Both the position numbers and the translations under genes were made by a program. Shown piece by piece: positions 1 through 55,668 of a DNA stretch of 64,000 nucleotides. The stretch covers positions 4,485 through 68,484 of the forward strand of contig CAYSWZ010000221.1 in the NCBI GenBank assembly GCA_964434945.1, read 5' to 3'. The first letter of the stretch is position 1. Each line of letters begins with the position of its first letter. This DNA is from an uncultured bacterium (GTDB lineage: Bacteria > Eisenbacteria > RBG-16-71-46). The notes beneath the pieces are model-generated. The model made no database searches and was not told the DNA's origin. It saw only the letters and a list, made by a program, of their open reading frames with translations.

Positions 1-1505
1 ACGAGCGGCGGCAGAACCGAGGCGCCCAGTTCGAAGTTGGGAACGAAGCGCGCCGGGAACTCGGTCGCCTGGATGCCCGCGGAGGGCGCGAATTTCTCGG
101 CATCGCCAAACGTGACGAAATGATCGCGCCACGCCACGAGCCGGCCGCCGGCATCCACCCCGCCCTCGAGATGATGAAAGCCCGCGGGGCGGTAGAAGTC
201 GTGCCGGAGATCGTCCTCGCGCGTCCACAGCAGCTTCACCGGCGCGCCGGCCGCCCTCGCGATCCAAGCGGCCTCGACCATGTAATCGTTGGAGAGCCGC
301 CGGCCGTAGCCGCCACCGGCACGCACGAGATGGATGACGATGTCCGACTCGGGGATGCCCAGCACCTGCGACACCAGCTCCCGGCCGGACTGCGGCGTCT
401 GCGAAGGCGCCCAGATCTCGAGCTTCCCGCCGTCCATGCGCGCCGTACAGTTCTGCGGCTCGAGCGTCGCGTGCGAGAGGAAGGGATAGGCGTAGGAAGC
501 CCGCACCCGCCGGGCCGCCGAAGCGAGCGCCGCGGTCACGTCGCCGTCCGTCCGCAGCATGCGCCCCGGCGCGGTGTTCGCGAACTCGGCCGCGCGGCGC
601 GCGAACCCCCCGCTCGAGAGCCCGGCCGCGGCGCCTTCGGTCCACTGGACCACCAGTTTCTCGCGCGCCGATTTCGCGGCCCACCAGCTGTCGGCCACGA
701 TCGCCACTCCGGAGAGGAGACCGCTGAGCGCGGTGCCGCCCTCGACCACGAAAACCTGGCGCACCCCGGGCTCGGCGCGCACCGTGTCGAGGTTCGCGGA
801 CGCCACCTTGCCACCGAACACCGGGCACTTCTCGAACACGGCGAAGCGCATGCCGGGAACGCGCACGTCGATCGCATAGAGCGGCCTGCCCAACGTGATC
901 GCCGGCGTGTCCACCCCGCGGCGGGGCGTGCCGATGATCGCGTAGTCCCTGGGATCCTTCAGTCGCACCGACTGGAGATCGGGAGGTGCGAGCGTGGCGG
1001 CGCGCGTGGCGAGCTTCCCGTAGCCGAGCTTCCGGCCGCTTCGCCCGTGCGACACCGCGGACAGGGCGGCGACGCACTCCGATTCGGGCACCTTCCAGGT
1101 GAGTGCCGCAGCCGAGATCAGCATCGCCCGGCCCGCGGCACCCACTCGGCGCTGCACGTCCCAGTTGTTCGGCGTCGCGCGGCTGCCGCCCGCGAACTGG
1201 TCGCCGAATCGTGCCGGGTCACTCGGCGCCTGCTCGATCGTCACTTGGTTCCAGTCCGCGCCCAGCTCCTCGGCGATGAGCATGGGGAGCATGGTCTTCA
1301 CCCCCTGGCCGATCTCGGGATTCTTCGCGACCAGGGTGATCGCCCCGTCCGCGGCGATGCGGATGAACGCGCCGAGTGCCGCCTGCTCGAGCTCGGCGGC
1401 CGAGAGCGGCCGGAAAGGCTCCAGGCAGGGCGCGAGGACGAGCCCGCCGCCGGCGAGCGCGGCCACCCGGAGGAACGTCCGCCGATCGATCAGGGTCGTG
1501 GCCAT
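1..1505 (-). CDS. iorB: Molybdopterin-binding large (beta) subunit of an IorAB-type aldehyde/isoquinoline oxidoreductase; the C-terminal end lies beyond the window start
   Basis: Absent from the ORF track because there is no stop inside the window. The minus frame is open from ATG 1505..1503 to position 1. The N-terminus MATTLIDRRTFLRVAALAGGGL is a twin-arginine signal. In-frame family-typical strings include GQGVKTMLPMLIAEELGADW, SHATLEPQNC and AGGGYGRR. The gene starts 3 nt after the stop of the 2Fe-2S subunit gene. Confidence 0.85.
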   Translation of the reverse strand, partial: MATTLIDRRTFLRVAALAGGGLVLAPCLEPFRPLSAAELEQAALGAFIRIAADGAITLVAKNPEIGQGVKTMLPMLIAEELGADWNQVTIEQAPSDPARFGDQFAGGSRATPNNWDVQRRVGAAGRAMLISAAALTWKVPESECVAALSAVSHGRSGRKLGYGKLATRAATLAPPDLQSVRLKDPRDYAIIGTPRRGVDTPAITLGRPLYAIDVRVPGMRFAVFEKCPVFGGKVASANLDTVRAEPGVRQVFVVEGGTALSGLLSGVAIVADSWWAAKSAREKLVVQWTEGAAAGLSSGGFARRAAEFANTAPGRMLRTDGDVTAALASAARRVRASYAYPFLSHATLEPQNCTARMDGGKLEIWAPSQTPQSGRELVSQVLGIPESDIVIHLVRAGGGYGRRLSNDYMVEAAWIARAAGAPVKLLWTREDDLRHDFYRPAGFHHLEGGVDAGGRLVAWRDHFVTFGDAEKFAPSAGIQATEFPARFVPNFELGASVLPPL

Positions 1506-5540: not shown

Positions 5541-6644
5541 CTACGGCACGGACCCGCACACCGGGGCCGCCGATGCGGCGATTGCATTCGCTGCACGGCA
5601 CCGAGCGCCCTCCCGCTTTCGGCGCATGAACTCCCGGCCGAACATGCTCTCAGCCGTGTGCTGGTTGTGCGCGCGACAGAGGAGCCGGATCCCGCCTGCA
5701 GTCGCCTGCCCGCCGCGCGCGACCGGTTGCACGTGGTCGAACTCGAGACGTGTGCGTGATTCGCAGCGCTTGCCACTGTCCCCCACGAACGTGCATCTCC
5801 CACCATCGCGATCGAGGACGGCCCGCCGAACCGCGGCGGGGATGTGCCGGCTCATCGCGGCGTCGCGTGGCTGGCGTGATCGGGCGCACTTGGCGAACTT
5901 CCGCTTCTCGAGATCGTGGACCAGCGCGGCGAGCGCACGCTCGATGATCTGCGCGACATCGCCGGAGGGCACGGCGTGACCGAGCAGAGCCTGCGCGTAA
6001 CGCAGCAACTCATGCGCGGTCCCGCCGATGGTGACCTGCAGTCCGAACCGGTCTGGCGCCAGCGGCCCAATCCTGCTGCGCGCCGGAAGTGGTTCCATCG
6101 GAACCGGTGGAATGGAGTCAGTCGATGGGACTACTGGTTCTGGAACCAGTTGAAGTGAGGTTGCGTCGGCAGGTCCAGTCACGGGTTCGTCCGCGGGAAC
6201 TGCAGGCGGAAGCGCCTGCAAGACCGCGGGCAGATCGGGTCGCGGGAAGCGCTCGGCGAGCAGCAATTCGATCTCGGCCCTGGTCTTGTGCCTGGCTGCT
6301 ATCAGCAGCCCCTCGGCCGTCTCGGGGCTGAGATGCGGCGCCAGCAGGACCACGGCGGTCAGATGCAGCCGCCCGTCGGCTACAGCAGGGAAGATGTCCG
6401 GGAAGCGGCGTGCAGCGCGCGCCGCCTGGATCCGCTTGTACGCCATGTCCTCCGACATGCGCAGTTCGTGCACGCAATACGAGTACATCGAATCATGCGC
6501 CGCTCGGAGAAACAGCCGTCGCTCGTCCACTTCGGCGATATGGGCGATGAGCGCGGCGGTCGTGACGCGATCCTGCGCGACGAGGGATGCCAGACCATTC
6601 AGGAGCGTGGAATCAGCGAGATGCGACAGCGAGTAGGACGTCAT
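5541..6644 (-). CDS. HNH endonuclease family protein (DUF222-like N-terminal region)
   Basis: The C-terminal HNH core is RCTFVGDSGKRCESRTRLEFDHVQPVARGG...LLCRAHNQH. The N-terminal part resembles the DUF222 region that accompanies such HNH domains in high-GC bacteria. ATG at 6644. Confidence 0.85.
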   Translation of the reverse strand: MTSYSLSHLADSTLLNGLASLVAQDRVTTAALIAHIAEVDERRLFLRAAHDSMYSYCVHELRMSEDMAYKRIQAARAARRFPDIFPAVADGRLHLTAVVLLAPHLSPETAEGLLIAARHKTRAEIELLLAERFPRPDLPAVLQALPPAVPADEPVTGPADATSLQLVPEPVVPSTDSIPPVPMEPLPARSRIGPLAPDRFGLQVTIGGTAHELLRYAQALLGHAVPSGDVAQIIERALAALVHDLEKRKFAKCARSRQPRDAAMSRHIPAAVRRAVLDRDGGRCTFVGDSGKRCESRTRLEFDHVQPVARGGQATAGGIRLLCRAHNQHTAESMFGREFMRRKREGARCRAANAIAASAAPVCGSVP

Positions 6645-9779: not shown

Positions 9780-9919
9780 GGCCGCACCGTAGGGAGCCGC
9801 GCCCGGCCGTGTCAAAGATGCGGCAGGGCGCGGCGTGCGGGGGCCGCGGGCCGGGCCCGCGACTCCCGTCTCACGTGCGTGCGGTCAGATCACCCCGCGC
9901 TCCGGGGCGGCTCGTGCCG

Positions 9920-17613: not shown

Positions 17614-18666
17614 GTGAAGCCAGTGCGCAGTTCCAGGGTCCGCCGAATACTCTTCGTCCGACCCCGGTTCCTCGGCGACGTCTGCCTGACGCTGCCCGCC
17701 GTGGACGCCGCGCTCGCCGCCTGCCCGGGGGCGCGCGCCGCCTACGTCACCGAGGCGGGCCTCGCCCCGCTCCTGGCGGGCGATCCGCGCTTCTCGGAGG
17801 TCTTCGCAGTTCCCTCCCGGCCCGGGTTCGCGGAGACCGCCGGGCTCGTTCGGAAGCTGCGGGCGTTCGCGCCCGACGTGGCGTTCGATTTCTTCTCCAA
17901 CCCCCGCACCGCGCTGTGGACGTTCGCGTCCGGCGCGCGGGTGCGGGTCGGCTACCCGAACAAGGGCTGGCGCTCGGCGCTCTACACCCACCACGCGCGG
18001 CCGCGCGTGCTCTCGAGCGTGGCGTTTCATTGCGCGTCCGTCGCCGCGCTCGGCTGGCCGGTGCCCGCGGGCCCGGTCTCGCCCCGGCTGGTGGTGAGCG
18101 ATCCGGCTCGCGCCGAGGCGCGCACCGCGCTTCGGGGGATGCACGTGCGCGACGATGCCATGCTCGTGGGATTCCACCCCGGCGCGCGCTGGCCGACGCG
18201 GCGCTGGGCCGCCGAGCGGTACGCGGGGCTGGGGCAGCGCCTGCTGCGCGAGCACATGCGCGCCGTCGTCCTCGTGACCGCCGGCCCGGGCGAGGGCGCG
18301 GTCGCGCGTGCCGTGCTCGACTCGCTCCAGCCCGAGCGCACGCATCTCATCGAGGGCTGGCCGCTCGAGCGGTTCGTGGCGTTGCAGTCGCTGTGCCGGG
18401 CGTTCGTGTGCGGGGACACCGGGCCCGTCCACACGGCCGTCGCGGCCGGCACGCCGACGCTCGGGCTCATGAGCCGAAACCGGCCGGCGATGTTCTTCCC
18501 CTACCCCGAGGCCGACGGCCACCGTGCGTACTGGTCGCGCGTCGAGTGCTCGCCGTGCGACCGCGACGAGTGCGACGACCTTCGCTGCCTCGCACGGCTT
18601 ACCGTGGACGGTGCGTGGGAGAAGCTGAGCGCGATGCTGGCGCCCGCCGGCCTGCGCACGAGCTGA
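17614..18666 (+). CDS. Glycosyltransferase family 9 (heptosyltransferase-like)
   Basis: GTG 17614 preceded by GAGGGGAG. RRILFVRPRFLGDVCLTLPAV and CGDTGPVHTAVAAGTPTLGL are GT9 hallmarks. The track ORF 16486..18666 is over-extended antisense to the PLP gene. Confidence 0.88.
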   Translation: MKPVRSSRVRRILFVRPRFLGDVCLTLPAVDAALAACPGARAAYVTEAGLAPLLAGDPRFSEVFAVPSRPGFAETAGLVRKLRAFAPDVAFDFFSNPRTALWTFASGARVRVGYPNKGWRSALYTHHARPRVLSSVAFHCASVAALGWPVPAGPVSPRLVVSDPARAEARTALRGMHVRDDAMLVGFHPGARWPTRRWAAERYAGLGQRLLREHMRAVVLVTAGPGEGAVARAVLDSLQPERTHLIEGWPLERFVALQSLCRAFVCGDTGPVHTAVAAGTPTLGLMSRNRPAMFFPYPEADGHRAYWSRVECSPCDRDECDDLRCLARLTVDGAWEKLSAMLAPAGLRTS

Positions 18667-18691: not shown

Positions 18692-21058
18692 TCACGCCGC
18701 CGCACGCCTCCGCTTCGCGTGGCGCTGGTAGGCATAGGAGACCGCGAGCATCGCCGCCCCTGCGGCGATCGCGATGAGGAATCGCCAGAACACGTCGGCG
18801 GAGGCGAGGTCGTAGAACGCGAACTTGAGGAGCGTCACGCCGATGAGCACGAGACCCGCCCAGCGGAGGAACGCCACCGCGCGAACCCAGCCGAGTGAGA
18901 GGAGCGCCAGTGCCTCGAGGAGCCACGCCGCGCTCGTGAGCGCGGCTCCGAGCGTGCGGACGCGCTCGAGCACGTCGGGCGCGGCGGGGGCCACGCGGTA
19001 GGCGCCCTCCCCTGCGACCCGGAGCAACGTGCGCGCGAGGTGGCCACCCTCGCGCGCGCTCCAGGGGAGGAGCATCACCAGGAGCCCGGCGGTGCACATC
19101 TCGGGCGCGTAGCGTTCCGCGGCCGAGAGCTCGGGGCGACAGGCGCCGATCCGCCACACCATGAAGGCCGCGAGCGCGAGACTGGCGAGGAGGCACCACC
19201 CGGCGGGGTAGAACACCGGCCGCTGATCGCTGCTCCAGCCGTCCAGGAGGCTCAAGCAGCCGACCACGGCGAAGAGCGCGAGCGACGCCAGTGCGTAGGC
19301 GGAGAAGCGCAGGAATCCGCTCCTCGCGCGCGCTCCCATCCACCCGAGCGCGGCGGCCTGCGTGAACCACGCGAACCCGATCGTCGCGGCGAAGAACTGG
19401 CTTTCGCGTACGCCCGGCTCGGGCGCCACGAGCGCATGCGGCTGCCACCAGCGGCCGGCCGGATTCTCCAGCGCGTGCGCCAGCGCGCCGCACCCGCGCC
19501 AGCTCCAGCCGACGAGCATCACGTTCGCGGCCGCGGTCCACAGTTCCGGCGCCCGGCGCTCGAGCGGACCCAGGTGGCCGCGACCGCGGGTGAGGAGCAG
19601 CGCGCCGAGGAGAAGCGCCACGATGATCGTGAGCTCGCGCAGTGCGTCGATGCCGAGGAACGGCAGCGCCCCGACCGTCCCCGGGTTCCACGCGGCGACC
19701 ACGTACGCGACCATCACCGCGACGCCCGCGACCACGTGACCGCAGAGGCGGAGCCAGCCCCCGCGCGGACCCGCGCCGAGGAGGACGAGCAGCACGCCCT
19801 CCACGCACCAGATCATGGCGAGGTTCTCGTCGCCCGTCAGCCGTTGCAGCCCGGCGGTGACGAACACGACCGCCGCCCCGGTGAGCGGGCGCCACAGATC
19901 GCGCTCCTGGCGGCGCGAGTCCACCCAGAGCGCCGCCAGCACCTGCACCACTCCGAGGCCGAGGAGCAACTGCGCCGCGGCGATCCGCGGCGCGAGGACG
20001 AGCCACGCCCACAGGCTGAGGAGGAGTCCGGCCGGGGCCGCCGCGACCACGGCGAGGTCGAGCGGGCGCACGCGCCCTTCCCGGCCGATGAGCCTCGGCA
20101 GCGGGGCGAGCCCGAGCCCGGTGAACAGTGCGACGAGTGCGAGCGTCACAGCCCAGCCCCATGTCCCGTCGGGACAGGCGAGCCGCCAGGTGAGCGCCGT
20201 GAGCGCCAGCGCCGAGAGATCGAGCGCGCTCCAGCCGGCGCGCGCGGTGAGCGCGAACACCAGCAGGTCCACGCACGCCAGGTAGCCGAGCAGCGCTCCG
20301 CGCTCGAGCGAGAAGCCTTCGAGCGGGATCCACGACGCGAGGAGCTGCGGGAGGAACGCCCCCACGACGCCGATCGCGGCGATGCCTTGGACGCCGTAGC
20401 GAAGTCCCGCGCCGATGACGAGGAACGACGTGAGCACGAGGAGCGCGAGAGCCGGCACCATCGGCAGCACGTGCAGCGTGAAGTGCCCGAGGTAGAGCGA
20501 GAGGTAGACCACGCCGAGCCCGACCCCGATGAACGTGTGCCCGAGTCGCGGCAGGCTCCGCGCGAGACGGTCGCCCCGCCAGGCGAAGGCGATTCCGATC
20601 CCGATCCCGGCGCTCACGAGCGCCCCGGCCCCGAAGCGGCCCGTGCTGTAACCCCAGAGGATGAAGAAGAAGACGCCGAGGAGCAGCACCACCGCGCCCG
20701 CGTTCTGGAGCCACACGCTCCCGATCAGGTTCTCGAGCCGTTCGGCCTCGAACGTGGGGTGCGGAGCGGCCGGCGCCGGGCTCGGGCGGACGTGGGTGTG
20801 CGGCTCGTCCCGCGCGCTCGCGGCCGGACGCGCGGGCGGCTCCCGGTGCGTGCCCGCCCCGGTGGGGATCGCGACCTGGCTCGCCGCGGGCGGCGAGTGG
20901 AATCCGGCCGGCGCGCTCCGCGCGGCCGCGGCCTCGACCGCGGCCAACCTCGCGCGGAGCTCGCGCAGCTCACGGCGCGCGCGTCCGATCTGGAAGAGCG
21001 CGACGAACGGCGCGATCAACCACGCGATGCCGAGCAGGACGACGGGCCACCACTCCAT
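18692..21058 (-). CDS. DUF2339-type polytopic membrane protein
   Basis: One N-terminal TM, a coiled RARRELRELRARLAAVEAAA segment and a Pro-rich linker, followed by more than 20 hydrophobic spans. This is the typical DUF2339 layout. Confidence 0.8.
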   Translation of the reverse strand: MEWWPVVLLGIAWLIAPFVALFQIGRARRELRELRARLAAVEAAAARSAPAGFHSPPAASQVAIPTGAGTHREPPARPAASARDEPHTHVRPSPAPAAPHPTFEAERLENLIGSVWLQNAGAVVLLLGVFFFILWGYSTGRFGAGALVSAGIGIGIAFAWRGDRLARSLPRLGHTFIGVGLGVVYLSLYLGHFTLHVLPMVPALALLVLTSFLVIGAGLRYGVQGIAAIGVVGAFLPQLLASWIPLEGFSLERGALLGYLACVDLLVFALTARAGWSALDLSALALTALTWRLACPDGTWGWAVTLALVALFTGLGLAPLPRLIGREGRVRPLDLAVVAAAPAGLLLSLWAWLVLAPRIAAAQLLLGLGVVQVLAALWVDSRRQERDLWRPLTGAAVVFVTAGLQRLTGDENLAMIWCVEGVLLVLLGAGPRGGWLRLCGHVVAGVAVMVAYVVAAWNPGTVGALPFLGIDALRELTIIVALLLGALLLTRGRGHLGPLERRAPELWTAAANVMLVGWSWRGCGALAHALENPAGRWWQPHALVAPEPGVRESQFFAATIGFAWFTQAAALGWMGARARSGFLRFSAYALASLALFAVVGCLSLLDGWSSDQRPVFYPAGWCLLASLALAAFMVWRIGACRPELSAAERYAPEMCTAGLLVMLLPWSAREGGHLARTLLRVAGEGAYRVAPAAPDVLERVRTLGAALTSAAWLLEALALLSLGWVRAVAFLRWAGLVLIGVTLLKFAFYDLASADVFWRFLIAIAAGAAMLAVSYAYQRHAKRRRAAA

Positions 21059-47336: not shown

Positions 47337-48440
47337 CTACATCTTGTCCGGACGGTGCCTCTCCGGGACCGGCACCGAAGTCGCGGGACCAGCGGAAGGA
47401 ACGACGATGGCATTGCCGTCCAGCGTGACGGCGCCGATCCTCGCCAATGCCCGGCCGTTCAGCGTTGCGCCGGTATTCAGCGTGATCGACTGATCCGCCA
47501 TGATGGTGCCCTGGCATACGGACGTCGTGCCGAGGGTTGCCGAGCTGCCCACCTGCCAGAAGATGTTCGACGCCCTGGCGCCCCCGCTCAGGAAGACCGC
47601 CCGGCCGGACGTCAGCGTGAGCGTCGACGCCATCTGGAAGATGAACACGGCATTGGGATCACCCTGCGCGTCGAGCATCAGGTCGCCCGAGGAGACCGCC
47701 AGGGAGGACGTCGACTTGTAGAGCCCCGGACGCAGGTTCCGCCCGCCGAGGTTCCCCGAGATCAGGACGGGAGCCAGAGTCCGTCCCGCCGCGTCGGCAT
47801 AGGCCTTGGTCAGGTCCACGATGGCCTGAGCCGAGGCCGGATCTCCGGCGTGCATCGCACCGACCAGGATTCCGGGCGGGAAGCCGGTCACTGCCGTTCC
47901 CGGGCTGACACCGAGGTCGCCCGTCACGGTGGTCTCACCGGTGTTGGTGACCGTCGCGCCGGCGAGGACCGCGAAGGTGCCGGCGCTGCCGAGATCCGGG
48001 GCTGCCAGCATTCCCGCGGTCGGCAACGTGGTGAAGCCCCACACGACGTTGCCTGGCAGCGCATTGCCGGCGAGATCCTTCGCCCCCGTCGTGATCGTGG
48101 CGGTGTACGCCGTGCCGGCTGCGAGTGCGCTGGAGGGCGAGAACCTGGCGACCTCGGTCGACGCGTCATACGTGACGCCGCCCCGGACGGAAGTGCCATC
48201 CGGCCCGATGATGGCGAAGGTGGTCGTCGAAATGGTCTTTGCGTCCATCGCTTCGCTGAAGACTGCCGTCATGACCGCCGTGCTCGTGGCGCGATCCAGG
48301 GGATTCGTTGCGATCACGGACGGTGCGACGGTGTCGACCGTCATGCCCACGGGGCTCTTGTTGGCGGAGCTGCATCCGGACGCCACCCCGAGGACGACTG
48401 CCAGCGTCAGGGCTGCGAGACTGCGGTTGCGGAACTGCAT
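47337..48440 (-). CDS. Lipoprotein: Big_5 (SbsA-type Ig) domain plus DUF3494 ice-binding-like beta-solenoid
   Basis: ATG 48440 preceded by AGGAGG. Lipobox LGVASGC. APSVIATNPLDRATS...GAKDLAGNAL is the Ig domain. LGSAGTFAVLAGATVTNTGETTVTGDLGVSPGTAVTGFPPG...NIFWQVGSSATLG...GRALA are DUF3494 hallmarks. Confidence 0.9.
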   Translation of the reverse strand: MQFRNRSLAALTLAVVLGVASGCSSANKSPVGMTVDTVAPSVIATNPLDRATSTAVMTAVFSEAMDAKTISTTTFAIIGPDGTSVRGGVTYDASTEVARFSPSSALAAGTAYTATITTGAKDLAGNALPGNVVWGFTTLPTAGMLAAPDLGSAGTFAVLAGATVTNTGETTVTGDLGVSPGTAVTGFPPGILVGAMHAGDPASAQAIVDLTKAYADAAGRTLAPVLISGNLGGRNLRPGLYKSTSSLAVSSGDLMLDAQGDPNAVFIFQMASTLTLTSGRAVFLSGGARASNIFWQVGSSATLGTTSVCQGTIMADQSITLNTGATLNGRALARIGAVTLDGNAIVVPSAGPATSVPVPERHRPDKM

Positions 48441-48577: not shown

Positions 48578-48697
48578 CGCGTCGGAGGAGCCTCGAGAGA
48601 CTCCGCAGTTCGTTGCGAGCCAGCCAGCTGGCGAGATCGCCGTGCGTCGTGGAATGCGGAGGTTCGCAGCGGAACGGGCGGCCGGGGCGGACGGATG

Positions 48698-48730
48698 TGC
48701 AAACTCGCGCCGTGTTCTTCAAACGGCGCG
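48698..48730 (-). promoter_or_regulatory. Candidate enhancer (UAS) for DUF3494 gene 1
   Basis: Plus strand TGCAAAC and CTTCAAAC are spaced 20 bp apart. The second copy sits inside the 8-bp inverted repeat CGCGCCGT..ACGGCGCG. About 142 bp upstream of the -24 GG. Confidence 0.5.
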
Positions 48731-48832
48731 GGCGCATCGGGATCTGGATGGCGCCCTGAATAGCCGAACGCTCACCTCCACTCCGGCGTGATGCGAAGTC
48801 CGCCGGCTGGAGATGAGCGATGGGTTCGGCAT

Positions 48833-48847
48833 CGGGGTCTCGCCCCG
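48833..48847 (-). terminator. Possible weak hairpin after DUF3494 gene 2
   Basis: CGGGG-TCTCG-CCCCG, 19 nt after the stop at 48866. No U-tract. Confidence 0.3.
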
Positions 48848-48865
48848 AACAAGTGTCGTGAACGA

Positions 48866-49918
48866 CTACGGCGTGGGAAGCACGGCAGCGTTGCCCGCGA
48901 GTGAGACCGCGCCGATCCGCGCCAGCGCCCTGCCACTCAGCGTCGCCCCGGTGTTCAGCGTGATCGACTGGTCCGCCATGACGGTGCCCTGGAATGCGGA
49001 CGTCGTGCCGAAGGTCGCGGAGCTGCCGACCTGCCAGAAGATGTTGGAGGCCTTGGCGCCGCCGATCAGGATCACGGCCCGAGCCGGGGTCGTGGTGAGC
49101 GTCGAGGCCATCTGGAAGATGAACACGGCGTTCGCGTTGCCCTGGGCATCCAACGTCAGGTCACCCGAGGAGATCTCGAGCGACGAGCTGGACTTGTAGA
49201 GACCCGGAGCCAGCGTCATCCCGCCGAGATTCCCGGCGACCGTGACCGGTGCCAGGGTGCGACCCGCGGCGTCGTTGTAGGCGAGGGTCAGAGCGGCCAT
49301 GGCCGCTGCCGAGGTGGGATCCGCAGCATGCTGCACGCCGGTGAGGATGCCCGGCGGGAAGCCCGTCACCGCGCTGCCCGGGCTGACGCCGAGATCGCCC
49401 GTGAGCGTGGTCAGGCCGGTGTTGGTGACCGTCGAGCCGGCCAGGATCACGAAGCCGCCCGCTGCACCGAGATTCGGCGCCAGCATCCCGGACACCACGC
49501 CACCCTTCGTGAATCTCCACACACGATTGGCCGGCAACGCATTGCCGGCGAGGTCCTTCACGCCGGTCGTGAGCGTCGCCACGTAGGCCGAGCCATCCAC
49601 GAGAGCGGCGGTGGGCACGAAGCTCGCCACCTGGGTCGGGGCGTCATAAGAGATGGCGCCCGCGAGGGGCGCCCCGCCCGGCCCGCTGACGAAGAACGTC
49701 GTCGCCGTGAACGTCGAAGCGTTCATCGGCTTGCTGAACGACGCGTTGATCAGCGTGACGCTCGTGGCGCCATCGGCAGGGGTCGTGCTGGTCACCGTCG
49801 GCGCCACGGATGCGGGTGGGACGGGATTCGGGCTCGAATTGGATGTCATGCAGCCAGCCGCCACGACAACCAGTGCGGCCAGCGATAGAGCGACGAGACT
49901 GCGTGTCCGGAACTTCAT
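48866..49918 (-). CDS. Lipoprotein: Big_5 Ig domain plus DUF3494 ice-binding-like beta-solenoid (tandem paralogue)
   Basis: ATG 49918 preceded by AGGAGG in the same context as gene 1 (CAACAGGAGGAT.TCTC). Lipobox VVAAGC. Colinear with gene 1, with long near-identical stretches (AVFIFQMASTLT, ASNIFWQVGSSAT, MADQSITLNTGATL.GRALARIGAV). Confidence 0.9.
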   Translation of the reverse strand: MKFRTRSLVALSLAALVVVAAGCMTSNSSPNPVPPASVAPTVTSTTPADGATSVTLINASFSKPMNASTFTATTFFVSGPGGAPLAGAISYDAPTQVASFVPTAALVDGSAYVATLTTGVKDLAGNALPANRVWRFTKGGVVSGMLAPNLGAAGGFVILAGSTVTNTGLTTLTGDLGVSPGSAVTGFPPGILTGVQHAADPTSAAAMAALTLAYNDAAGRTLAPVTVAGNLGGMTLAPGLYKSSSSLEISSGDLTLDAQGNANAVFIFQMASTLTTTPARAVILIGGAKASNIFWQVGSSATFGTTSAFQGTVMADQSITLNTGATLSGRALARIGAVSLAGNAAVLPTP

Positions 49919-50030
49919 CGAGAGATCCTCCTGTTGCGTTCGTTGGTGTCGCGTGCAGGCTGCAGGCGACGTTGTCTCGAGTCCTTCGAAGTGAACGGCG
50001 CCGCACGGTGCGACACACCCGGGGAGCAAC

Positions 50031-50045
50031 GCACGAACAGGGCCA
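50031..50045 (-). promoter_or_regulatory. Sigma-54 promoter of DUF3494 gene 2
   Basis: Minus strand TGGCCCTGTTCGTGC with GG-N10-GC spacing, about 110 nt upstream of the ATG. Confidence 0.7.
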
Positions 50046-50161
50046 TTCGTCGGAGGAATCGCGCGGCACGCCCTAGGTGCCTGCGGCAGCGCACGCTAGC
50101 CCCGTCGCTCGACGCCGCGGCGGGCGATCCATCGGGTGTCACTCCCGCGCAGAGAAGGACG

Positions 50162-50192
50162 GAAGTTCAAGATCGCACCCTGTTCTTCAATC
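50162..50192 (-). promoter_or_regulatory. Candidate enhancer (UAS) for DUF3494 gene 2
   Basis: Plus strand GTTCAAG and CTTCAAT are spaced 20 bp apart, about 142 bp upstream of the -24 GG. Confidence 0.5.
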
Positions 50193-50340
50193 CCGGCATG
50201 CATGCGCAGGATCCAGATGCTGACCGTGAACGTCACCGGAACCGGACATCTGGATCCGCCGCGAGCGAGCGATGCGGCACGCTCGGCGGGGCGCCGTGGT
50301 CAACCGTGTCTGCACCGGTGACACACACTCAATGCGAAAT

Positions 50341-50384
50341 GGAGAGAGGGCGGACCGAACAACGATTCGGTCCGCCCTCTCTCC
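50341..50384 (-). terminator. Very strong hairpin terminator downstream of DUF3494 gene 3
   Basis: 19-bp perfect stem GGAGAGAGGGCGGACCGAA / TTCGGTCCGCCCTCTCTCC with loop CAACGA, 50 nt after the stop at 50436. Confidence 0.7.
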
Positions 50385-50435
50385 ACGCTCGGCTCGAGCG
50401 TGCGCGACCTGAGTGCGGCCAGAAGCCGCGTTGCC

Positions 50436-51188
50436 CTACCGATACATCGACTTGACCTTGCCCCAGGTCGACTTGGTCGTGGGTGTTCCCTTGTCGTTGG
50501 TTCCAACAATGGTGTTCGTGTCCATGGACACGGCGCCGCTCTGCGCCAGGGCCCGACCCGCCACGGTGGCGTTGGTATTGAGCGTGATGCTCGCGGACGC
50601 GAGCACATTGCCGAGCGTCGTGGAACCGATGCCGAGCGTCGCGGAACTGCCGACCTGCCACCAGACGTGCCGCCCCTGAGCGCCATTGATCACGGTCACG
50701 GAAGAGCCGTTGGCGACCGTCAGCGTGCTTCCCATCTGGAAGACGAACACCGCGGAGGTGTCGCCTTGAGCGTCAAGCGTCAGGGCCCCGGTCAATCCCG
50801 CCGAAGTCGCGAAGCAGTACACCCCGGGCACGAGCGTCTTGCCTCCCAGGTCCACGCCGGTCATCGTGACGGAGCAGGGCATGCCGGCCAGGAAGCCGTA
50901 CATCGTGCCGAGATCCGCCATCGCCTGAGCTGCTGCGGCATCACCGGCGTGAACCGTCCCGGGGCTGGGCTGTCCGAGGGGAAGTCCCGTGATCGCCGTG
51001 CCGGGGCTCACGCCAACGTCGCCGCTGATGGTCGTCGCGCCGGTATTGGTGATCGTCGAGCCGGCCAGGACCGCATAGCCCGCCGCAGTACCCAGGCCGT
51101 TCTGGGCGAACGCGAACGAGGGCAGGAACAAGAGCGCGGTGAGTGCGGCGCCGGTGACGAGAGCCGAGTGCTTGTAGCGGTACTTCAT
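50436..51188 (-). CDS. Exported DUF3494 ice-binding-like protein (no Ig domain)
   Basis: ATG 51188; signal peptide MKYRYKHSALVTGAALTALLFLPSFAFA. LGTAAGYAVLAGSTITNTGATTISGDVGVSPGTAITG...HVWWQVGSSATLG...GRALA. Confidence 0.9.
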   Translation of the reverse strand: MKYRYKHSALVTGAALTALLFLPSFAFAQNGLGTAAGYAVLAGSTITNTGATTISGDVGVSPGTAITGLPLGQPSPGTVHAGDAAAAQAMADLGTMYGFLAGMPCSVTMTGVDLGGKTLVPGVYCFATSAGLTGALTLDAQGDTSAVFVFQMGSTLTVANGSSVTVINGAQGRHVWWQVGSSATLGIGSTTLGNVLASASITLNTNATVAGRALAQSGAVSMDTNTIVGTNDKGTPTTKSTWGKVKSMYR

Positions 51189-51289
51189 GTTGCACCCCCA
51201 CATCCGTGAAGTGGACCAGCGACTCGCCGCGAACCCTTCTCGGGTCTCCGCGTTGTCCTGGGATCCTGCTTCTTGCTCGTCCCGGTAAC

Positions 51290-51304
51290 GCACGCGTGAT
51301 GCCA
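51290..51304 (-). promoter_or_regulatory. Sigma-54 promoter of DUF3494 gene 3
   Basis: Minus strand TGGCATCACGCGTGC with GG-N10-GC spacing, about 100 nt upstream of the ATG. Confidence 0.7.
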
Positions 51305-51421
51305 CGTTCGACCCGGATCGTGTCCGCTCCCCGAACCCGTTACGAAGGTGGGCGTTGACCGCCGGCGCGATCGGTTCGGGGGACGTGCGAGTGGGCGCCT
51401 GCCGGCGATCCACGAGACCAC

Positions 51422-51451
51422 TTCCTTCAAAGCCGCGCAGTTCTTACAACG
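51422..51451 (-). promoter_or_regulatory. Candidate enhancer (UAS) for DUF3494 gene 3
   Basis: Plus strand CCTTCAAAG and TTCTTACAAC are about 19 bp apart, the second flanked by CCGCG..CGCGG. About 141 bp upstream of the -24 GG and just downstream of the kinase stop. Confidence 0.45.
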
Positions 51452-51462
51452 CGGCGTTGGGG

Positions 51463-53343
51463 CTAGGACGCCACTCCGTCCACGCCGAGACCCCGGCGTC
51501 TCGCGAGGCTGCCCACGACCGCGATCAGCTCGTTGGGATTCGCGGGCTTGGACAGGTACATCTGGAAGCCCGCGGAGAGGATGGTCACGCGGTCGTCGAT
51601 CTTGGCGAACGCGGTCAGCGCCACCGCCGGGGTCAGGCCGCCTCGCGCCGGCGAGCGGAGCCGGATCTTCCGGATGAGCGAGTATCCGTCTTCGCCGGGC
51701 ATGGCGATGTCCGAGACGAGAACGTCCGGCTGCCAGTCGTCGAACACGATGAGCGCTGCCGCGGCCGAATCCGCGACACGGGCCTCCGCGCCGCAAGAGT
51801 CGAACAACACGCCGAGCGCCTCGCTCGAACTCGGTTCGTCGTCGACGACGAGCACGCGAACCCCGTCCAGTCGCCCGAGGTGGACGGAAGCGAGCGCATC
51901 CCCCGCGATCGGGTGCCGTCGCGAGGGGATACCACCCTCTCGAGTCGAGGGCAGAAGCGGGAACTTGACCGTGAACTTGGCGCCGTGACCGGGGCCATCG
52001 CTGTACCCGGTGATCTCGCCGCCGTGCAGTTCGACGATATGGCGAACGATGGAGAGGCCCAGGCCGAGTCCCCCGTGGCGTCGCATCGTCCCGCCGGTGG
52101 CCTGCCGGAAGGGCTCGAAGACGTGCGGCAGGAACTCGGGATCGATGCCGATGCCGGTATCGCTGACCGCGATCTCCACGTGCGACTCCGCCCGTTGCAG
52201 CACCACCTGCACCCTGCCGCCGCGGGGGGTGAACTTGATGGCATTGGAGATCAGGTTCGACATCACCTGCTTGAGACGTTCCGAGTCCCCCGAGATCGGC
52301 CCTGCCCGCTCGTCGAGAACGAGCTGCAGGGCGATCTGCTTGGCGGAACTCGCCGGGGTCTGCGATTCGGCTGCTTCCTTGATCACCGGCCCGAGCTCGA
52401 CGGGCCTCACGTCGAGCCGGAACTTCCCGGACACGACCCTCGACACATCGACCAGATCGTCGATGAGCTGGGTCTGGGACATAACGTTGCGCTCGATGAC
52501 CTCCAGTGCCCGGGCGGTCTTCGCCTCGTCGAGCGTTCCGCTTCGAAGCAGCTGGGTCCAGGTGAGGATCGGCGCGAGGGGGTTGCGGAGCTCGTGCGAC
52601 ACGGTCGCCAGGAACTGGTCCTTCAGGCGCCCGACCGCCTCCACTTCGGAAAGCGATTCCATCGCCTGGCTCTGCCCGCTCTCGGCCAGTGTGCGAGCGG
52701 TCGTCTGCTCACCATAGCTTCGGGTCAGCGCGATGCTGATGAAGATGCAGAACAACACCAACAATACGATGTTCGCGACGGAAAACGAGATCAACAGGGT
52801 CTCGGAGCGGCTGACCTCCGCGCGGGCGGGAGCGAGGTTTCGGATTCGCGCCGACTCGCGGTGCGCCACCAGCGCCGCGAGCGCCAGCTCGTACTGGGCG
52901 CTGCGCGTCAGCACGGCCTCGGGATAGAGCGCCCCGGAAGAACCCTTGCCGGCACCTGCCGCCAGCGCGTTCGCGAACGCGTCCTCGTGCGCCTGCTCCG
53001 CGGCCAGGACGCTGACCAGAAGCGCCCGGCCCTCGGGGTCGGTGATCTGCCCCTGCAGGCGCTCGACAAGATCGCGCGCCCTTGCGCTACCCGTTCGTGC
53101 CGCGGGGGTGAACTCCTTCCCACCGCTGAGAAGGCAGGCGCGCACGTCGGCGATGTTCTTGAGCCCGATGAGCTGCAGTGCCCTCGCGTCCGCGAGATCC
53201 TGGCCTTCCCCGGAGGTGACCTTCGTCATGTTCGAGATCAGGGAGCGCGAGGCGAACAGGGACACGACGGTCGTGAGCAGGACCAGCACACAGATCAGGA
53301 TCACGCCGGTGGTGAGTTTTGTTTGAAAAGACCATGTCGACAC
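51463..53343 (-). CDS. Hybrid sensor histidine kinase (periplasmic helical sensor, HisKA, HATPase_c, C-terminal receiver)
   Basis: Two TM spans flank a helical domain of about 150 aa. H-box FLATVSHELRNPL, N-box NLISNAIKFT, G-boxes DTGIGI and GGLGLGLSIV. Receiver VLVVDDEP...VLVSDIAMPGEDG...LTA...SKP. Confidence 0.92.
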   Translation of the reverse strand: MSTWSFQTKLTTGVILICVLVLLTTVVSLFASRSLISNMTKVTSGEGQDLADARALQLIGLKNIADVRACLLSGGKEFTPAARTGSARARDLVERLQGQITDPEGRALLVSVLAAEQAHEDAFANALAAGAGKGSSGALYPEAVLTRSAQYELALAALVAHRESARIRNLAPARAEVSRSETLLISFSVANIVLLVLFCIFISIALTRSYGEQTTARTLAESGQSQAMESLSEVEAVGRLKDQFLATVSHELRNPLAPILTWTQLLRSGTLDEAKTARALEVIERNVMSQTQLIDDLVDVSRVVSGKFRLDVRPVELGPVIKEAAESQTPASSAKQIALQLVLDERAGPISGDSERLKQVMSNLISNAIKFTPRGGRVQVVLQRAESHVEIAVSDTGIGIDPEFLPHVFEPFRQATGGTMRRHGGLGLGLSIVRHIVELHGGEITGYSDGPGHGAKFTVKFPLLPSTREGGIPSRRHPIAGDALASVHLGRLDGVRVLVVDDEPSSSEALGVLFDSCGAEARVADSAAAALIVFDDWQPDVLVSDIAMPGEDGYSLIRKIRLRSPARGGLTPAVALTAFAKIDDRVTILSAGFQMYLSKPANPNELIAVVGSLARRRGLGVDGVAS

Positions 53344-53443
53344 GGTGTGACCCCGCTCTGGAAAGGCGATTCGAGGATCGAACGGTGGCGTTTTCCAACC
53401 GATGGACCGACGCTGTCCTCACGACTTGCATGCGGAGCTTGCG

Positions 53444-53460
53444 CTCCTGGGGCCCAGGAG
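53444..53460 (-). terminator. Short hairpin after the glycine-zipper lipoprotein gene
   Basis: CTCCTGG-GGC-CCAGGAG, 29 nt after the stop at 53489. Confidence 0.4.
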
Positions 53461-53488
53461 TCGAATCCGCCCGACTCGGGGCCACGGC

Positions 53489-54112
53489 CTAGTTCACGGT
53501 GAAGCTCATCAGCGTGCCGGACTTCAATACGACCTGATACCCCTTGGAACTGGCCACCACGCCCGTGGCGGCTGCCCCGCCGATGAGCCCTCCCGCGGCG
53601 GCATGCCTGCCGTCGCCCACGACGTTGCCAATGAGTGCGCCGGCCAGGACCCCACCGGCGATGGCTCCAAGGTTACGGGCGCGAGTGGAACCGGCGACGA
53701 CCGATTCGCCATTCGCCGCGATCGACTCGTCCCGGCCGTTCACTCGGATGTTGCGGACCGCGAGGTCCAGCATGGCGCGGGCGCCGCGCTGTGCACCCGT
53801 GGCTCCGGTGACCACGCCATTCACCGGGCTGCCGGCGGGAATCACACCTCCATGCCTCGTCACCACGTTGTTCGCCACCGTTCCATGCCAGGCATCCCCG
53901 ACGGAGGCGGTCTCGGAGGAGATGGCGCCACCCAGCGTCACGTTGAACATCGAACCCGACGACAGGAAGCGTGACGGGGAGCTGCGGGACTGCCCCGGCT
54001 GGGAGGTCCCCGCCTGACCGCCATCGCTCTCATCCCTGCAGCCGATCGAGAGCCCGAGTGTCATGACGAGGCCGATTGCTGTCAGCAGCGCGGTGCGTGT
54101 GCGGGTTGTCAT
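53489..54112 (-). CDS. Lipoprotein with a C-terminal glycine-zipper region
   Basis: ATG 54112 preceded by AGGAGG. Lipobox LGLSIGC. Glycine zipper NLGAIAGGVLAGALIGNVVGDGRHAAAGGLIGGAAATG. Confidence 0.8.
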   Translation of the reverse strand: MTTRTRTALLTAIGLVMTLGLSIGCRDESDGGQAGTSQPGQSRSSPSRFLSSGSMFNVTLGGAISSETASVGDAWHGTVANNVVTRHGGVIPAGSPVNGVVTGATGAQRGARAMLDLAVRNIRVNGRDESIAANGESVVAGSTRARNLGAIAGGVLAGALIGNVVGDGRHAAAGGLIGGAAATGVVASSKGYQVVLKSGTLMSFTVN

Positions 54113-54186
54113 CTGGTGTGCTCCTCCTGGCTGGTCACATCCGCCCCGACCTGATTTCAGGCTCGACGGTCGCTCGAGACACACCC

Positions 54187-54201
54187 GCACGAACGGTGCC
54201 A
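54187..54201 (-). promoter_or_regulatory. Sigma-54 promoter of the glycine-zipper lipoprotein gene
   Basis: Minus strand TGGCACCGTTCGTGC with GG-N10-GC spacing, about 75 nt upstream of the ATG. It differs from the DUF3494 gene 1 promoter at one position. Confidence 0.75.
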
Positions 54202-54307
54202 GCGGTTCGGATCGCCCGCCCGGGCACGCCAATCCGTTGTGGAGGTCCGGGCTAGCCGGGTTTCGCGTGGATTTCGAGCGGGACCCGCGGCCGGGATGCG
54301 CAGGAAG

Positions 54308-54339
54308 GAACTTCAAGCGCAGGGAAGGATCTACAAGTC
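54308..54339 (-). promoter_or_regulatory. Candidate enhancer (UAS) for the lipoprotein gene
   Basis: Plus strand ACTTCAAG and TCTACAAG are spaced 20 bp apart, about 132 bp upstream of the -24 GG and immediately 3' of the activator gene stop. Confidence 0.45.
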
Positions 54340-54345
54340 CCGGGC

Positions 54346-55668
54346 TCAGACCTCGGAGTAGAGGTGAAGCCGGTTGTAGAGCGTCTTGAGGCTGATGCCC
54401 AGGATCTGCGCCGCCCGCTTCTTGTCGCCGCCGCACTGCTCGAGCGTGCCGAGGATGAGCTTGCGTTCGGATTCCTCGAGCGAACCTCCGACCTCGGTGG
54501 GGGGCGGCGCGGGGTCGGGCCCCGTGGGCAGATCCGACAGTTCGATCACCTTGTCGCTCATGATGAAGGCCCGATGCAATTCGTTCCTCAGCTCGCGCAC
54601 GTTGCCCCGCCACGGGCACTTCCGGATGCGATCGCGCGCAGCGGCACTCAGCTTCTTGCTCGTGCCGTGGGTCCCGTTGAGCGACTCCAGGAAATGCGTG
54701 GCCAGCAGGATTCCGTCCTCCTCACGCTCACGAAGCGGCGGCAGGACGATCGGGAATACGTTGATCCGGTAGTAGAGATCCTCCCGCAGTTTGCCGTCCC
54801 GGACGGCCTCCAATGGCACCCGGTTCGTGGCCGTGATCAGGCGCACGTCCACCGGAACCGGCACGTCACCGCCGACGCGAACCACGGAGCCGGACTCGAG
54901 CACGCGCAGCAACTTGACCTGCAGCTCGATCGGCATCTCCGTGATCTCGTCGAGGAACAAGGTGCCCCCGCCGGCTCTCTCGAAGCAGCCGCGTCGGAGC
55001 TGCGTCGCACCCGTGAAGCTCCCTCGCTCGTGTCCGAAGAGTTCGCTCTCGATCAGGGTCAGCGGGATCGCGCCACAGTTGACTGGAATGAACGGCCTCT
55101 GCCGACGACTGCTGAGCTCGAAGATCGTCTGCGCGACGAGTTCCTTGCCGGTCCCGCTCTCACCCGAAACGAAGACCGTCGCGTCCGTGGGAGCGACCTT
55201 GACCATGAGGTCGTACACCTTCTGCATCGCGGGAGACACTCCGATCAACCGGCCCAGGCGGCCCAGCTTCCGCAACTCGCCCCGCAGGCTGCCCACCTCT
55301 TCCTTGAGCGACCGCAGCCGAAGCACGTTCGCGAGCACGGCCTTCAGCCGCCGGTTGTCGAGTGGCTTGGTGAGGTAGTCGAGCGCGCCGAGCCGAAGCG
55401 CCTCGATCGCGGAGTCGACCGTGGCCGTACCCGAAACCATGATCACGTCGGCACTCGACGTCTCCTTGATCTCACGGAGCAGTGCGATCCCGTCTCCATC
55501 GGGCAACCTCAGATCGACCAGGACGAGGTCGGCGGCGCCGTTCGCGAGATGCGCACGAGCCTCCTGGAGCGAGTGGGCGCTCGTGACGTCGAACCCCTCC
55601 TGCGTGGCGACCTCGGCCACGCCCTCGAGGAAGTCGGAATCGTCGTCGACGAACAGTGCACGCAGCAT
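54346..55668 (-). CDS. Sigma-54-dependent response regulator (NtrC family bacterial enhancer-binding protein)
   Basis: Receiver (FVDDDSD...LVLVDLRLPDGDG...TKP). AAA+ domain with Walker A GESGTGKE, the sigma-54 contact loop ESELFGHERGSFTGA (GAFTGA variant) and RELRN. C-terminal Fis-type HTH AAQILGISLKTLYNRL. ATG 55668. Confidence 0.93.
   Translation of the reverse strand: MLRALFVDDDSDFLEGVAEVATQEGFDVTSAHSLQEARAHLANGAADLVLVDLRLPDGDGIALLREIKETSSADVIMVSGTATVDSAIEALRLGALDYLTKPLDNRRLKAVLANVLRLRSLKEEVGSLRGELRKLGRLGRLIGVSPAMQKVYDLMVKVAPTDATVFVSGESGTGKELVAQTIFELSSRRQRPFIPVNCGAIPLTLIESELFGHERGSFTGATQLRRGCFERAGGGTLFLDEITEMPIELQVKLLRVLESGSVVRVGGDVPVPVDVRLITATNRVPLEAVRDGKLREDLYYRINVFPIVLPPLREREEDGILLATHFLESLNGTHGTSKKLSAAARDRIRKCPWRGNVRELRNELHRAFIMSDKVIELSDLPTGPDPAPPPTEVGGSLEESERKLILGTLEQCGGDKKRAAQILGISLKTLYNRLHLYSEV

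Follow-up and report, generated by a model that had tools for sequence, protein, structure and literature searches.

In the upstream activating sequence (UAS) of NtrC (e.g., at glnAp2 of enteric bacteria), two sites separated by an integral number of helical turns lie more than 100 bp upstream of a GG-N10-GC promoter, and the protein acting there is a response regulator of the REC-AAA+-helix-turn-helix (HTH) type that is encoded with its kinase. CbrB of Pseudomonas putida, which is a monomer in solution, recognizes short non-palindromic subsites located 12 to 16 nt apart upstream of sigma-54 promoters; there are three subsites in mixed orientation (i.e., F1, R1, and R2; motif TGTTAC/GTAACA), and IHF assists (PMC6296734, on which our statements about bacterial enhancer-binding proteins [bEBPs] and NtrC-type sites are also partly based). 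Nla28 of Myxococcus xanthus is a bEBP reported to use tandem imperfect 8-bp repeats, CT(C/G)CG(C/G)AG, upstream of sigma-54 promoters; both repeats are needed for binding, their spacing is variable (mean, approximately 25 bp), and three to five copies are often present (PMC9765219). Here we describe a pair of TTGWA repeats in a 64,000-nt stretch of contig CAYSWZ010000221.1 (hereafter, the window; G+C content of 71%) from an uncultured bacterium of the Eisenbacteria. The pair recurs upstream of four putative sigma-54 promoters next to the gene for an NtrC-family activator, for which it is a candidate UAS.

All genes of the cluster are on the minus strand, and upstream means higher coordinates throughout. 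Read on the coding strand, each pair is a direct repeat, TTG[ACT]A-N14/15-TTG[ACT]A (referred to as a dyad), found upstream of four of four promoters. The extended unit consensus is TTGWAGWTCCTKCC, with the core TTGWA. The promoters precede three genes for DUF3494 proteins (ibp1, ibp2, and ibp3) and a lipoprotein-like open reading frame (ORF). In the lines below, distances run from the starts of the distal and proximal units to the first G of the -24 GG.

48689 to 48722, minus strand: ibp1 dyad, TTGAAGAACACGGCGCGAGTTTGCACATCC; distal unit TTGAAGAACACGGC starting at 48722, proximal unit TTGCACATCCGTCC starting at 48702; 146 and 126 nt
50157 to 50190, minus strand: ibp2 dyad, TTGAAGAACAGGGTGCGATCTTGAACTTCC; distal unit TTGAAGAACAGGGT, proximal unit TTGAACTTCCGTCC; 146 and 126 nt
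51417 to 51449, minus strand: ibp3 dyad, TTGTAAGAACTGCGCGGCTTTGAAGGAAG; distal unit TTGTAAGAACTGCG, proximal unit TTGAAGGAAGTGGT, spacing of 19 bp; 146 and 127 nt; begins 14 nt past the kinase stop codon
54303 to 54336, minus strand: lipoprotein-gene dyad, TTGTAGATCCTTCCCTGCGCTTGAAGTTCC; distal unit TTGTAGATCCTTCC, proximal unit TTGAAGTTCCTTCC; 136 and 116 nt; begins 10 nt past the activator stop codon
48562 to 48577, minus strand: putative ibp1 sigma-54 promoter, TGGCACCGTTCCTGCG, GG-N10-GC, intergenic
50030 to 50045, minus strand: putative ibp2 sigma-54 promoter, TGGCCCTGTTCGTGCG, GG-N10-GC, intergenic
51289 to 51304, minus strand: putative ibp3 sigma-54 promoter, TGGCATCACGCGTGCG, GG-N10-GC, intergenic
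54186 to 54201, minus strand: putative sigma-54 promoter of the lipoprotein gene, which may form an operon with the kinase gene, TGGCACCGTTCGTGCG, GG-N10-GC, intergenic

The lipoprotein-unit dyad is thus one helical turn nearer its promoter than those of the other three units. A preliminary description of this DNA had listed four heptamer pairs and claimed four sigma-54 promoters; all four pairs are present where it had placed them, and a GG-N10-GC match was found in each of the four intergenic regions. It had also given distances of 141 to 142 nt (132 nt in the lipoprotein unit) between the GG and the promoter-proximal copy. These values are correct to within one base but refer to the copy farther from the promoter, since coordinates rise in the upstream direction on this strand; the near edge of the proximal heptamer lies 121 to 122 nt from the GG (111 nt in the lipoprotein unit). 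The four promoters, each located in an intergenic region upstream of a gene, have the GG and GC 10 nt apart in a TGGCAC-N5-TTGC-like context and end 62 to 121 nt before the start codons. Their -12 element is (C/G)TGCG, versus the TTGCW consensus.

In each 200-nt upstream region, the two dyad pentamers are the sole occurrences of TTG[ACT]A, a pentamer with a density of 0.76 per kb per strand in the window. A dyad pattern that was fixed post hoc, with the data already seen, occurs five times in 128 kb (both strands), with four of the five occurrences being these sites; dinucleotide shuffling of each 200-nt region yielded a dyad in 0.02 to 0.12% of trials. The TTGAA element was the top motif in every run of a one-site-per-sequence de novo search, with z scores of 4.7 and 6.5 relative to shuffles when the duplicated ibp1/ibp2 pair was included.

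The evidence that decides the matter comes from other genomes and is independent of the window. We identified eleven other loci encoding an activator 69 to 84% identical to that of the window (referred to as orthologous loci). The closest named relatives of the activator are from metagenome-assembled genomes labelled Candidatus Eisenbacteria. The orthologous hybrid kinase is retained in most of these loci, usually adjoining the activator, and is 55 to 67% identical where measured. The eleven loci contain 22 further dyads, nearly all of which are 103 to 136 nt upstream of sigma-54 promoters, and the genes that they precede encode DUF3494, outer membrane protein (OMP) beta-barrel, and DUF6627 proteins and the kinase itself. 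The numbers of modules (i.e., a dyad with its promoter) are as follows:

L001, 3; L081, 1; L082, 1; L161, 3; L162, 3; L163, 1
L164, 2; L165, 2; L166, 1 (plus two degenerate copies); L167, 3; L168, 2

In L001, TTGAACATCCGGCCGCCGTTTGAACTTCCTTCCTGCGC lies 115 nt upstream of TGGCACCATTCGTGCG, before an OMP_b-brl gene, and there are two more modules, one of which precedes the kinase gene; a near-identical copy of the proximal unit of the lipoprotein-gene dyad, TTGAAGTTCCTTCC, is located at position 17919 of this locus. L161 has the gene order of the window (activator-kinase-Ice_binding) and contains three modules with a distance of 126 nt in every case; an Ice_binding gene is preceded by one of these. 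The dyads of L081 and L082 follow the kinase gene. The modules of L162 and L164 to L167 precede OMP_b-brl/DUF6627/DUF5670 clusters, Big_5 plus Ice_binding genes, and the kinase gene. In L001, L162, and L164, a separate dyad and promoter serve the kinase gene. The dyads of L163 and L168 (two), and two more of L162, are followed at 112 to 126 nt by variant promoters (CGGCACCATTCATGCG, TGGCATCAATCTCGCG, and TGGCACGAAACTGGCG); one of the two in L168 is before a Big_5 plus Ice_binding gene. A tblastn search of the first 160 loci with the DUF3494 and lipoprotein sequences of the window returned just one weak match, to the lipoprotein, and the DUF3494 targets at orthologous loci surfaced only once closer orthologues were added.

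The association between dyad and activator was quantified with one fixed dyad pattern and the downstream motif TGG[CT]-N8-TGC, excluding the window. The sigma-54-like motif followed 16 of the 25 dyads in orthologous loci and 8 of the 94 dyads in loci of distant paralogues (4.2 Mb, both strands; Fisher p = 3e-8). Six of the eight cases at paralogue loci are an artifact, lying on the antisense strand of the conserved coding sequence of the HTH helix.

Together, the four window dyads and those of the orthologous loci form a set of 26 sites, from which the anatomy of the element was determined. The number of units is always two, and a third is never present. The start-to-start spacing is 19 bp (12 sites), 20 bp (9 sites), 21 bp (4 sites), or 18 bp (1 site), so that 25 of the 26 sites have two units 19 to 21 bp apart, as in enhancers with integral helical-turn spacing. 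Direct half-sites occur at offsets 0 and 18 to 21 in all sites, and inverted half-sites (T[ATG]CAA) were found around the 26 sites only four times, at no common offset; a search for a palindrome hidden within or beside the units found none at any site. Measured to the GG, the proximal units fall mainly into two classes about one helical turn apart, at 115 to 116 nt (6 sites) and 123 to 128 nt (12 sites), with single sites at 69, 103, 112, 133, and 136 nt. Enhancers typically lie approximately 80 to 200 bp upstream of the -24/-12 element; the proximal unit is at 116 to 127 nt in the window and at 103 to 136 nt at most orthologous sites, and relative to the transcription start the dyad is at about -130 to -170. 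Depending on the genome, the dyad that follows the kinase gene belongs to one or the other distance class, which suggests that insertions or deletions of about one helical turn were tolerated. The units point toward the promoter wherever a promoter can be assigned, with one possible exception (i.e., the L162 dyad at 6116, upstream of a minus-strand promoter at 6065, which has the opposite orientation).

The duplication that gave rise to ibp1 and ibp2 was also considered. The two proteins are 65% identical, and each is 52 to 53% identical to the ibp3 product. In an alignment of the ibp1 and ibp2 upstream regions, similarity has decayed, and the surviving blocks are chiefly the dyad, the promoter with a few flanking bases, and the Shine-Dalgarno region; judged from this alignment, the pair acts as a phylogenetic footprint rather than a recent copy. 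This supports the earlier suggestion that the ibp3 and lipoprotein-gene sites are not explained by the ibp1/ibp2 duplication.

What was observed directly is the sequence architecture of the element, its conservation, its association with the orthologous activator, and the helical phasing. There is no reasonable doubt that the element exists and is conserved. On the basis of sequence, we consider it probable that the paired TTGWA units are the UAS of the adjacent REC-AAA+-HTH_8 activator, whose REC-Sigma54_activat-HTH_8 gene lies nearby (54346 to 55668) and whose orthologues have the modules at their loci. The proposal of the preliminary description that the repeat pair is a candidate NtrC-family enhancer gains support accordingly from the fact that the dyad travels with the orthologous activator and is rare before a sigma-54-like motif at distant-paralogue loci.

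As regards the protein that binds, the phosphorylation step, and the looping, we infer the following mechanism. The hybrid kinase would sense a signal, probably from the cell envelope, and the receiver domain of the activator would then be phosphorylated via this kinase. Tethered approximately 115 to 170 bp upstream of each sigma-54 promoter, the activator would assemble into its active ATPase ring on the pair of 14-bp units, whose spacing of 19 to 20 bp places both on one face of the helix. The intervening GC-rich DNA would loop such that the ring touches the sigma-54 holoenzyme at the -24/-12 promoter, and ATP hydrolysis would open the promoter held in the sigma-54 closed complex. The DUF3494 surface proteins and the lipoprotein would be transcribed, probably together with the kinase, resulting in positive feedback on the sensor. 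Such feedback seems to be conserved, as three orthologous loci have a separate dyad and promoter for the kinase gene.

Several observations weigh against this assignment. Classical NtrC-type sites are palindromic, with inverted half-sites approximately 11 bp apart, and the element described here lacks such dyad symmetry. Paralogues that share the recognition helix of the activator mostly have no dyad at their loci, and some orthologous loci also carry an inverted TTGTA-N19-TACA layout at another promoter. The distances between unit and GG are phased at a period of 10.5 bp (Rayleigh R = 0.65), although the sites are related by descent, which makes the p-value optimistic and the statistic suggestive only. 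Finally, when only the three independent upstream regions of the window are used, the z scores of the de novo motif are 0.8 and 1.7, which are not significant. The check that had been proposed (i.e., de novo discovery against shuffled controls) thus succeeded in part, with the TTGAA element coming out on top but clearly exceeding shuffles only with both duplicates, and we accordingly rely on the cross-genome evidence.

The most serious rival explanation is that the dyad is bound by another protein (e.g., a second regulator, a repressor, or a DNA-bending architectural protein that helps the DNA to loop), with the activator binding elsewhere or acting from solution. The activator is a presumed binder, and its recognition helix is common to paralogues whose loci mostly lack the dyad, both of which leave room for this explanation, but we consider it unlikely. 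The dyad specifically co-occurs with the orthologous activator, and no other DNA-binding regulator is conserved in the orthologous neighborhoods examined. Moreover, the element is at the usual position of an activator site rather than between such a site and the promoter. Among architectural proteins, IHF was rejected, as the four intergenic regions contain no strict match to its consensus (WATCAANNNNTTR), no TCAA-N4-TTR core, and no A-tracts; the strict consensus was found nowhere in the window. Chance clustering of AT-rich pentamers, or a relic of the ibp1/ibp2 duplication, might be suspected from the weak de novo score of the three independent sequences and from the homology of the ibp1 and ibp2 upstream regions. 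However, shuffled regions rarely contain a dyad, and the dyad, its spacing, and its distance recur at eleven other loci before different genes. This cross-genome conservation effectively refutes the explanation, to which we attach a negligible probability.

Two further readings assign the repeats to other kinds of elements. The plus strand at 54307 to 54336 reads GGAACTT, 16 nt, and TCTACAA, which resembles the RpoE-type consensus, and the ibp2 site and one L001 site (L001-b) read GGAAGTT followed, after a 15- to 16-nt spacer, by TGTTCAA or TCTTCAA. An opposite-strand promoter of the extracytoplasmic function (ECF) sigma type (GGAACTT-N16-TCTaCAA), producing divergent or antisense transcripts, might be read from these sequences. 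We rejected this candidate as very improbable: both of its elements are copies of a single motif, as expected if one domain binds twice and not of a bipartite promoter; most of the 26 sites lack the GGAAsTT form; all transcripts started in this way in the window would enter the upstream gene in antisense; and an independent promoter would have no need of a fixed distance and phase relative to the sigma-54 promoter. A scan for sigma-70 promoters found none at the dyad positions.

It is similarly hard to regard the TTCAA motifs as the incidental loop and tail of a hairpin that inverted repeats at the distal copy would form, whether to terminate the upstream gene or as a cruciform, and we assign this reading only a slight chance. 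The preliminary description had pointed to GC-rich inverted repeats at two copies, and these are real: 48706 to 48713/48723 to 48730 (8 bp, perfect) flanks the distal unit of ibp1, and 51428 to 51437/51450 to 51459 (10 bp, 90% complementary) flanks that of ibp3 right after the kinase stop codon and is followed by TTTG. Their folding z scores are moderate (-2.1 and -1.6, respectively), and several orthologous sites have 5- to 10-bp arms around one unit. No such GC-rich repeat is present in the ibp2 or lipoprotein units, however, so that stems occur at two of the four window sites and are not conserved. Over the 26 sites, folding was not significantly better than that of shuffles (mean z of -0.36; p = 0.06), versus a z of -0.13 for neighboring control segments. 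The terminator scan had no match there, and the conserved bases are those of the supposed loop and not of the arms. An intrinsic terminator or conserved hairpin was therefore rejected, and the inverted repeats are preferably regarded as incidental features or as terminators that act locally on the gene before them.

If the paired units are the UAS of the activator, their closest counterparts are the sites of NtrC, CbrB, and Nla28. The element shares with the NtrC system a pair of sites separated by whole helical turns, a location over 100 bp upstream of a GG-N10-GC promoter, and a response regulator encoded with its kinase. It differs in that the NtrC site is a palindrome occupied by a symmetric dimer, whereas the window units are direct repeats without an inverted partner. 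The motif TTGWAGWTCCTKCC is unrelated to the NtrC site as generally described. Like those of CbrB, the window subsites are non-palindromic, with TTGWA pentamers 13 to 16 nt apart; because CbrB is monomeric in solution, binding by a symmetric dimer is not required. Unlike CbrB sites, those of the window have exactly two units, both pointing toward the promoter, and no IHF consensus in the four intergenic regions, and the likeness is one of layout rather than of established orthology. Tandem repeats are shared with Nla28, from which the window differs in its tight spacing of 19 to 21 bp and a copy number fixed at two. Direct-repeat, non-palindromic units make non-symmetric binding as in CbrB or Nla28 likelier than a classical symmetric NtrC dimer site, and by analogy, a long proline-rich linker (DLPTGPDPAPPPTEVGG) preceding a minimal HTH_8 domain in the activator, together with the direct-repeat geometry, fits such a mode. 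A stricter reading would be that the element is an orientation-locked, helically phased direct-repeat enhancer, made up of two 14-bp units arranged head to tail and invariably directed at the promoter, from distances differing by whole turns (approximately 115, 126, and 136 nt); we put this forward tentatively and regard it as possible rather than likely. Literature searches turned up no account of DUF3494 genes being regulated by sigma-54 and none of a regulon in Eisenbacteria.

The genes of the window cluster, including the predicted targets and the regulators, are as follows:

47337 to 48440, minus strand: ibp1, predicted target gene, Big_5 plus DUF3494 (PF11999, Ice_binding; Pfam match)
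48866 to 49918, minus strand: ibp2, predicted target gene, Big_5 plus DUF3494 (PF11999, Ice_binding; Pfam match)
50436 to 51188, minus strand: ibp3, predicted target gene, DUF3494/Ice_binding (Pfam match to PF11999 only)
51463 to 53343, minus strand: hybrid histidine kinase, HisKA-HATPase_c-REC (domain matches), presumed sensor partner
53489 to 54112, minus strand: lipoprotein-like ORF (207 aa), predicted target gene, no Pfam or NCBIfam match
54346 to 55668, minus strand: NtrC-family activator with REC, Sigma54_activat (AAA+), AAA_lid, and HTH_8 (domain matches) and a GSFTGA loop, presumed to bind the dyad

The activator gene, which abuts the cluster, is the single bEBP gene detected within the 64-kb window; rpoN was not found there, as there was no RpoN-box match within a real gene. 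Named equivalogs (e.g., AtoC, NtrC, and ZraR) were rejected for the activator, with all scores below the curated cutoffs (for the NCBIfam ntrC equivalog, 372.6 bits against a cutoff of 558.6). The recognition helix of its HTH, LGISLKTLYNRL, is invariant in relatives down to approximately 55% identity, including many from Burkholderiales; paralogue loci that share this helix mostly lack the dyad, and the helix alone therefore does not explain specificity. Hexamers enriched upstream of the sigma-54 promoters at paralogue loci are TTACAC, TTACAT, GTTACA, and ATGTAA (i.e., TGTAA-type half-sites), often approximately 79 to 93 nt from the GG, where enrichment was measured against a whole-locus background and many of the Burkholderiales loci are closely related. 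TTACA(C/T) and GTAA elements are located 78 to 120 nt upstream of the sigma-54 promoters in L050, L058, L068, L076, L024, L019, and other Burkholderiales loci (55 to 60% identity), and one example, GTTACAC-N9-GTAATTGTTAC, recalls the TGTTAC-N12-GTAACA site of CbrB. Promoters divergent from the orthologous activator gene have, approximately 102 nt upstream of the GG, an inverted layout, TTGTA(G/A)nAAC-N12-(G/C)TTACA (i.e., TGTA-N19-TACA):

L002, approximately 9880 to 9910, minus strand: inverted layout
L081, approximately 1255 to 1285, minus strand: inverted layout
L083, approximately 420 to 450, minus strand: inverted layout

This layout may be an alternative arrangement of the dyad half-site. 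The enriched hexamers are consistent with a TTGTA/TGTAA half-site that is shared across the family and arranged in various ways.

Several other features of these loci were observed. The promoter spacer is unusually conserved, reading TGGCACC(A/G)TTC(G/C)TGCG in the window and in L001, L081, L162, and L165 to L167, with a -12 element of (G/C)TGCG instead of TTGCW. The kinase gene of the window is 145 bp downstream of the lipoprotein gene and may be cotranscribed with it from the lipoprotein promoter. The gap between them (53344 to 53488) contains CGCCACCGTTCGATCC, which matches the cluster promoter TGGCACCGTTCGTGCG at 12 of 16 positions, without the GG and GC dinucleotides, and may be a decayed promoter, given that L001, L162, and L164 have a dyad and promoter for the kinase gene itself. 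In three orthologous loci, the kinase gene is preceded by the conserved motif (T/C)GGCACGATTCTGG, namely in L081 (3330 to 3345), L082 (1975 to 1990), and L002 (11600 to 11615); it may be a sigma-54 promoter variant, with GC at -12 in L082 but GT in L081 and GG in L002. Approximately 50 nt past the ibp3 stop codon is a perfect 20-bp inverted repeat with a 6-nt loop (50340 to 50385; TGGAGAGAGGGCGGACCGAA/TTCGGTCCGCCCTCTCTCCA), which is probably a terminator hairpin without a T-run; ibp3 would then be its own transcription unit. In L001, a dyad at 20416 and a promoter at 20328, only 69 nt apart, precede a short ORF (20240 to 19840, minus strand) that by eye looks like ECF sigma factor region 2. 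The flanks of L001, L162, and L164 to L168 repeatedly contain genes for OMP_b-brl, DUF6627, and DUF5670 proteins, a 71-aa ORF, Peptidase_C39-like plus TPR proteins, and Big_5 plus Ice_binding proteins, which suggests a conserved envelope or secreted-protein regulon.

The kind of mechanism proposed here is already known; the motif is newly defined. For an uncharacterized NtrC-family two-component system, it provides a testable predicted recognition motif (TTGWAGWTCCTKCC twice, 19 to 20 bp apart), from which a regulon can be predicted from sequence, including DUF3494/ice-binding-like surface proteins, OMP beta-barrel, DUF6627, and DUF5670 proteins, and the sensor kinase. As a probable bEBP enhancer, the element is also a clear case of a direct-repeat layout in which helical phasing is conserved, and it bears on how the activator ring is positioned relative to the sigma-54 holoenzyme. 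If the orientation-locked reading is true, this bEBP family would dock asymmetrically, protomer by protomer as CbrB does, in a defined geometry to the sigma-54 holoenzyme and without IHF. The uncultured phylum Candidatus Eisenbacteria would then have a previously undescribed envelope regulon, comprising DUF3494 "ice-binding-like," OMP beta-barrel, DUF6627, and DUF5670 proteins and the kinase itself.

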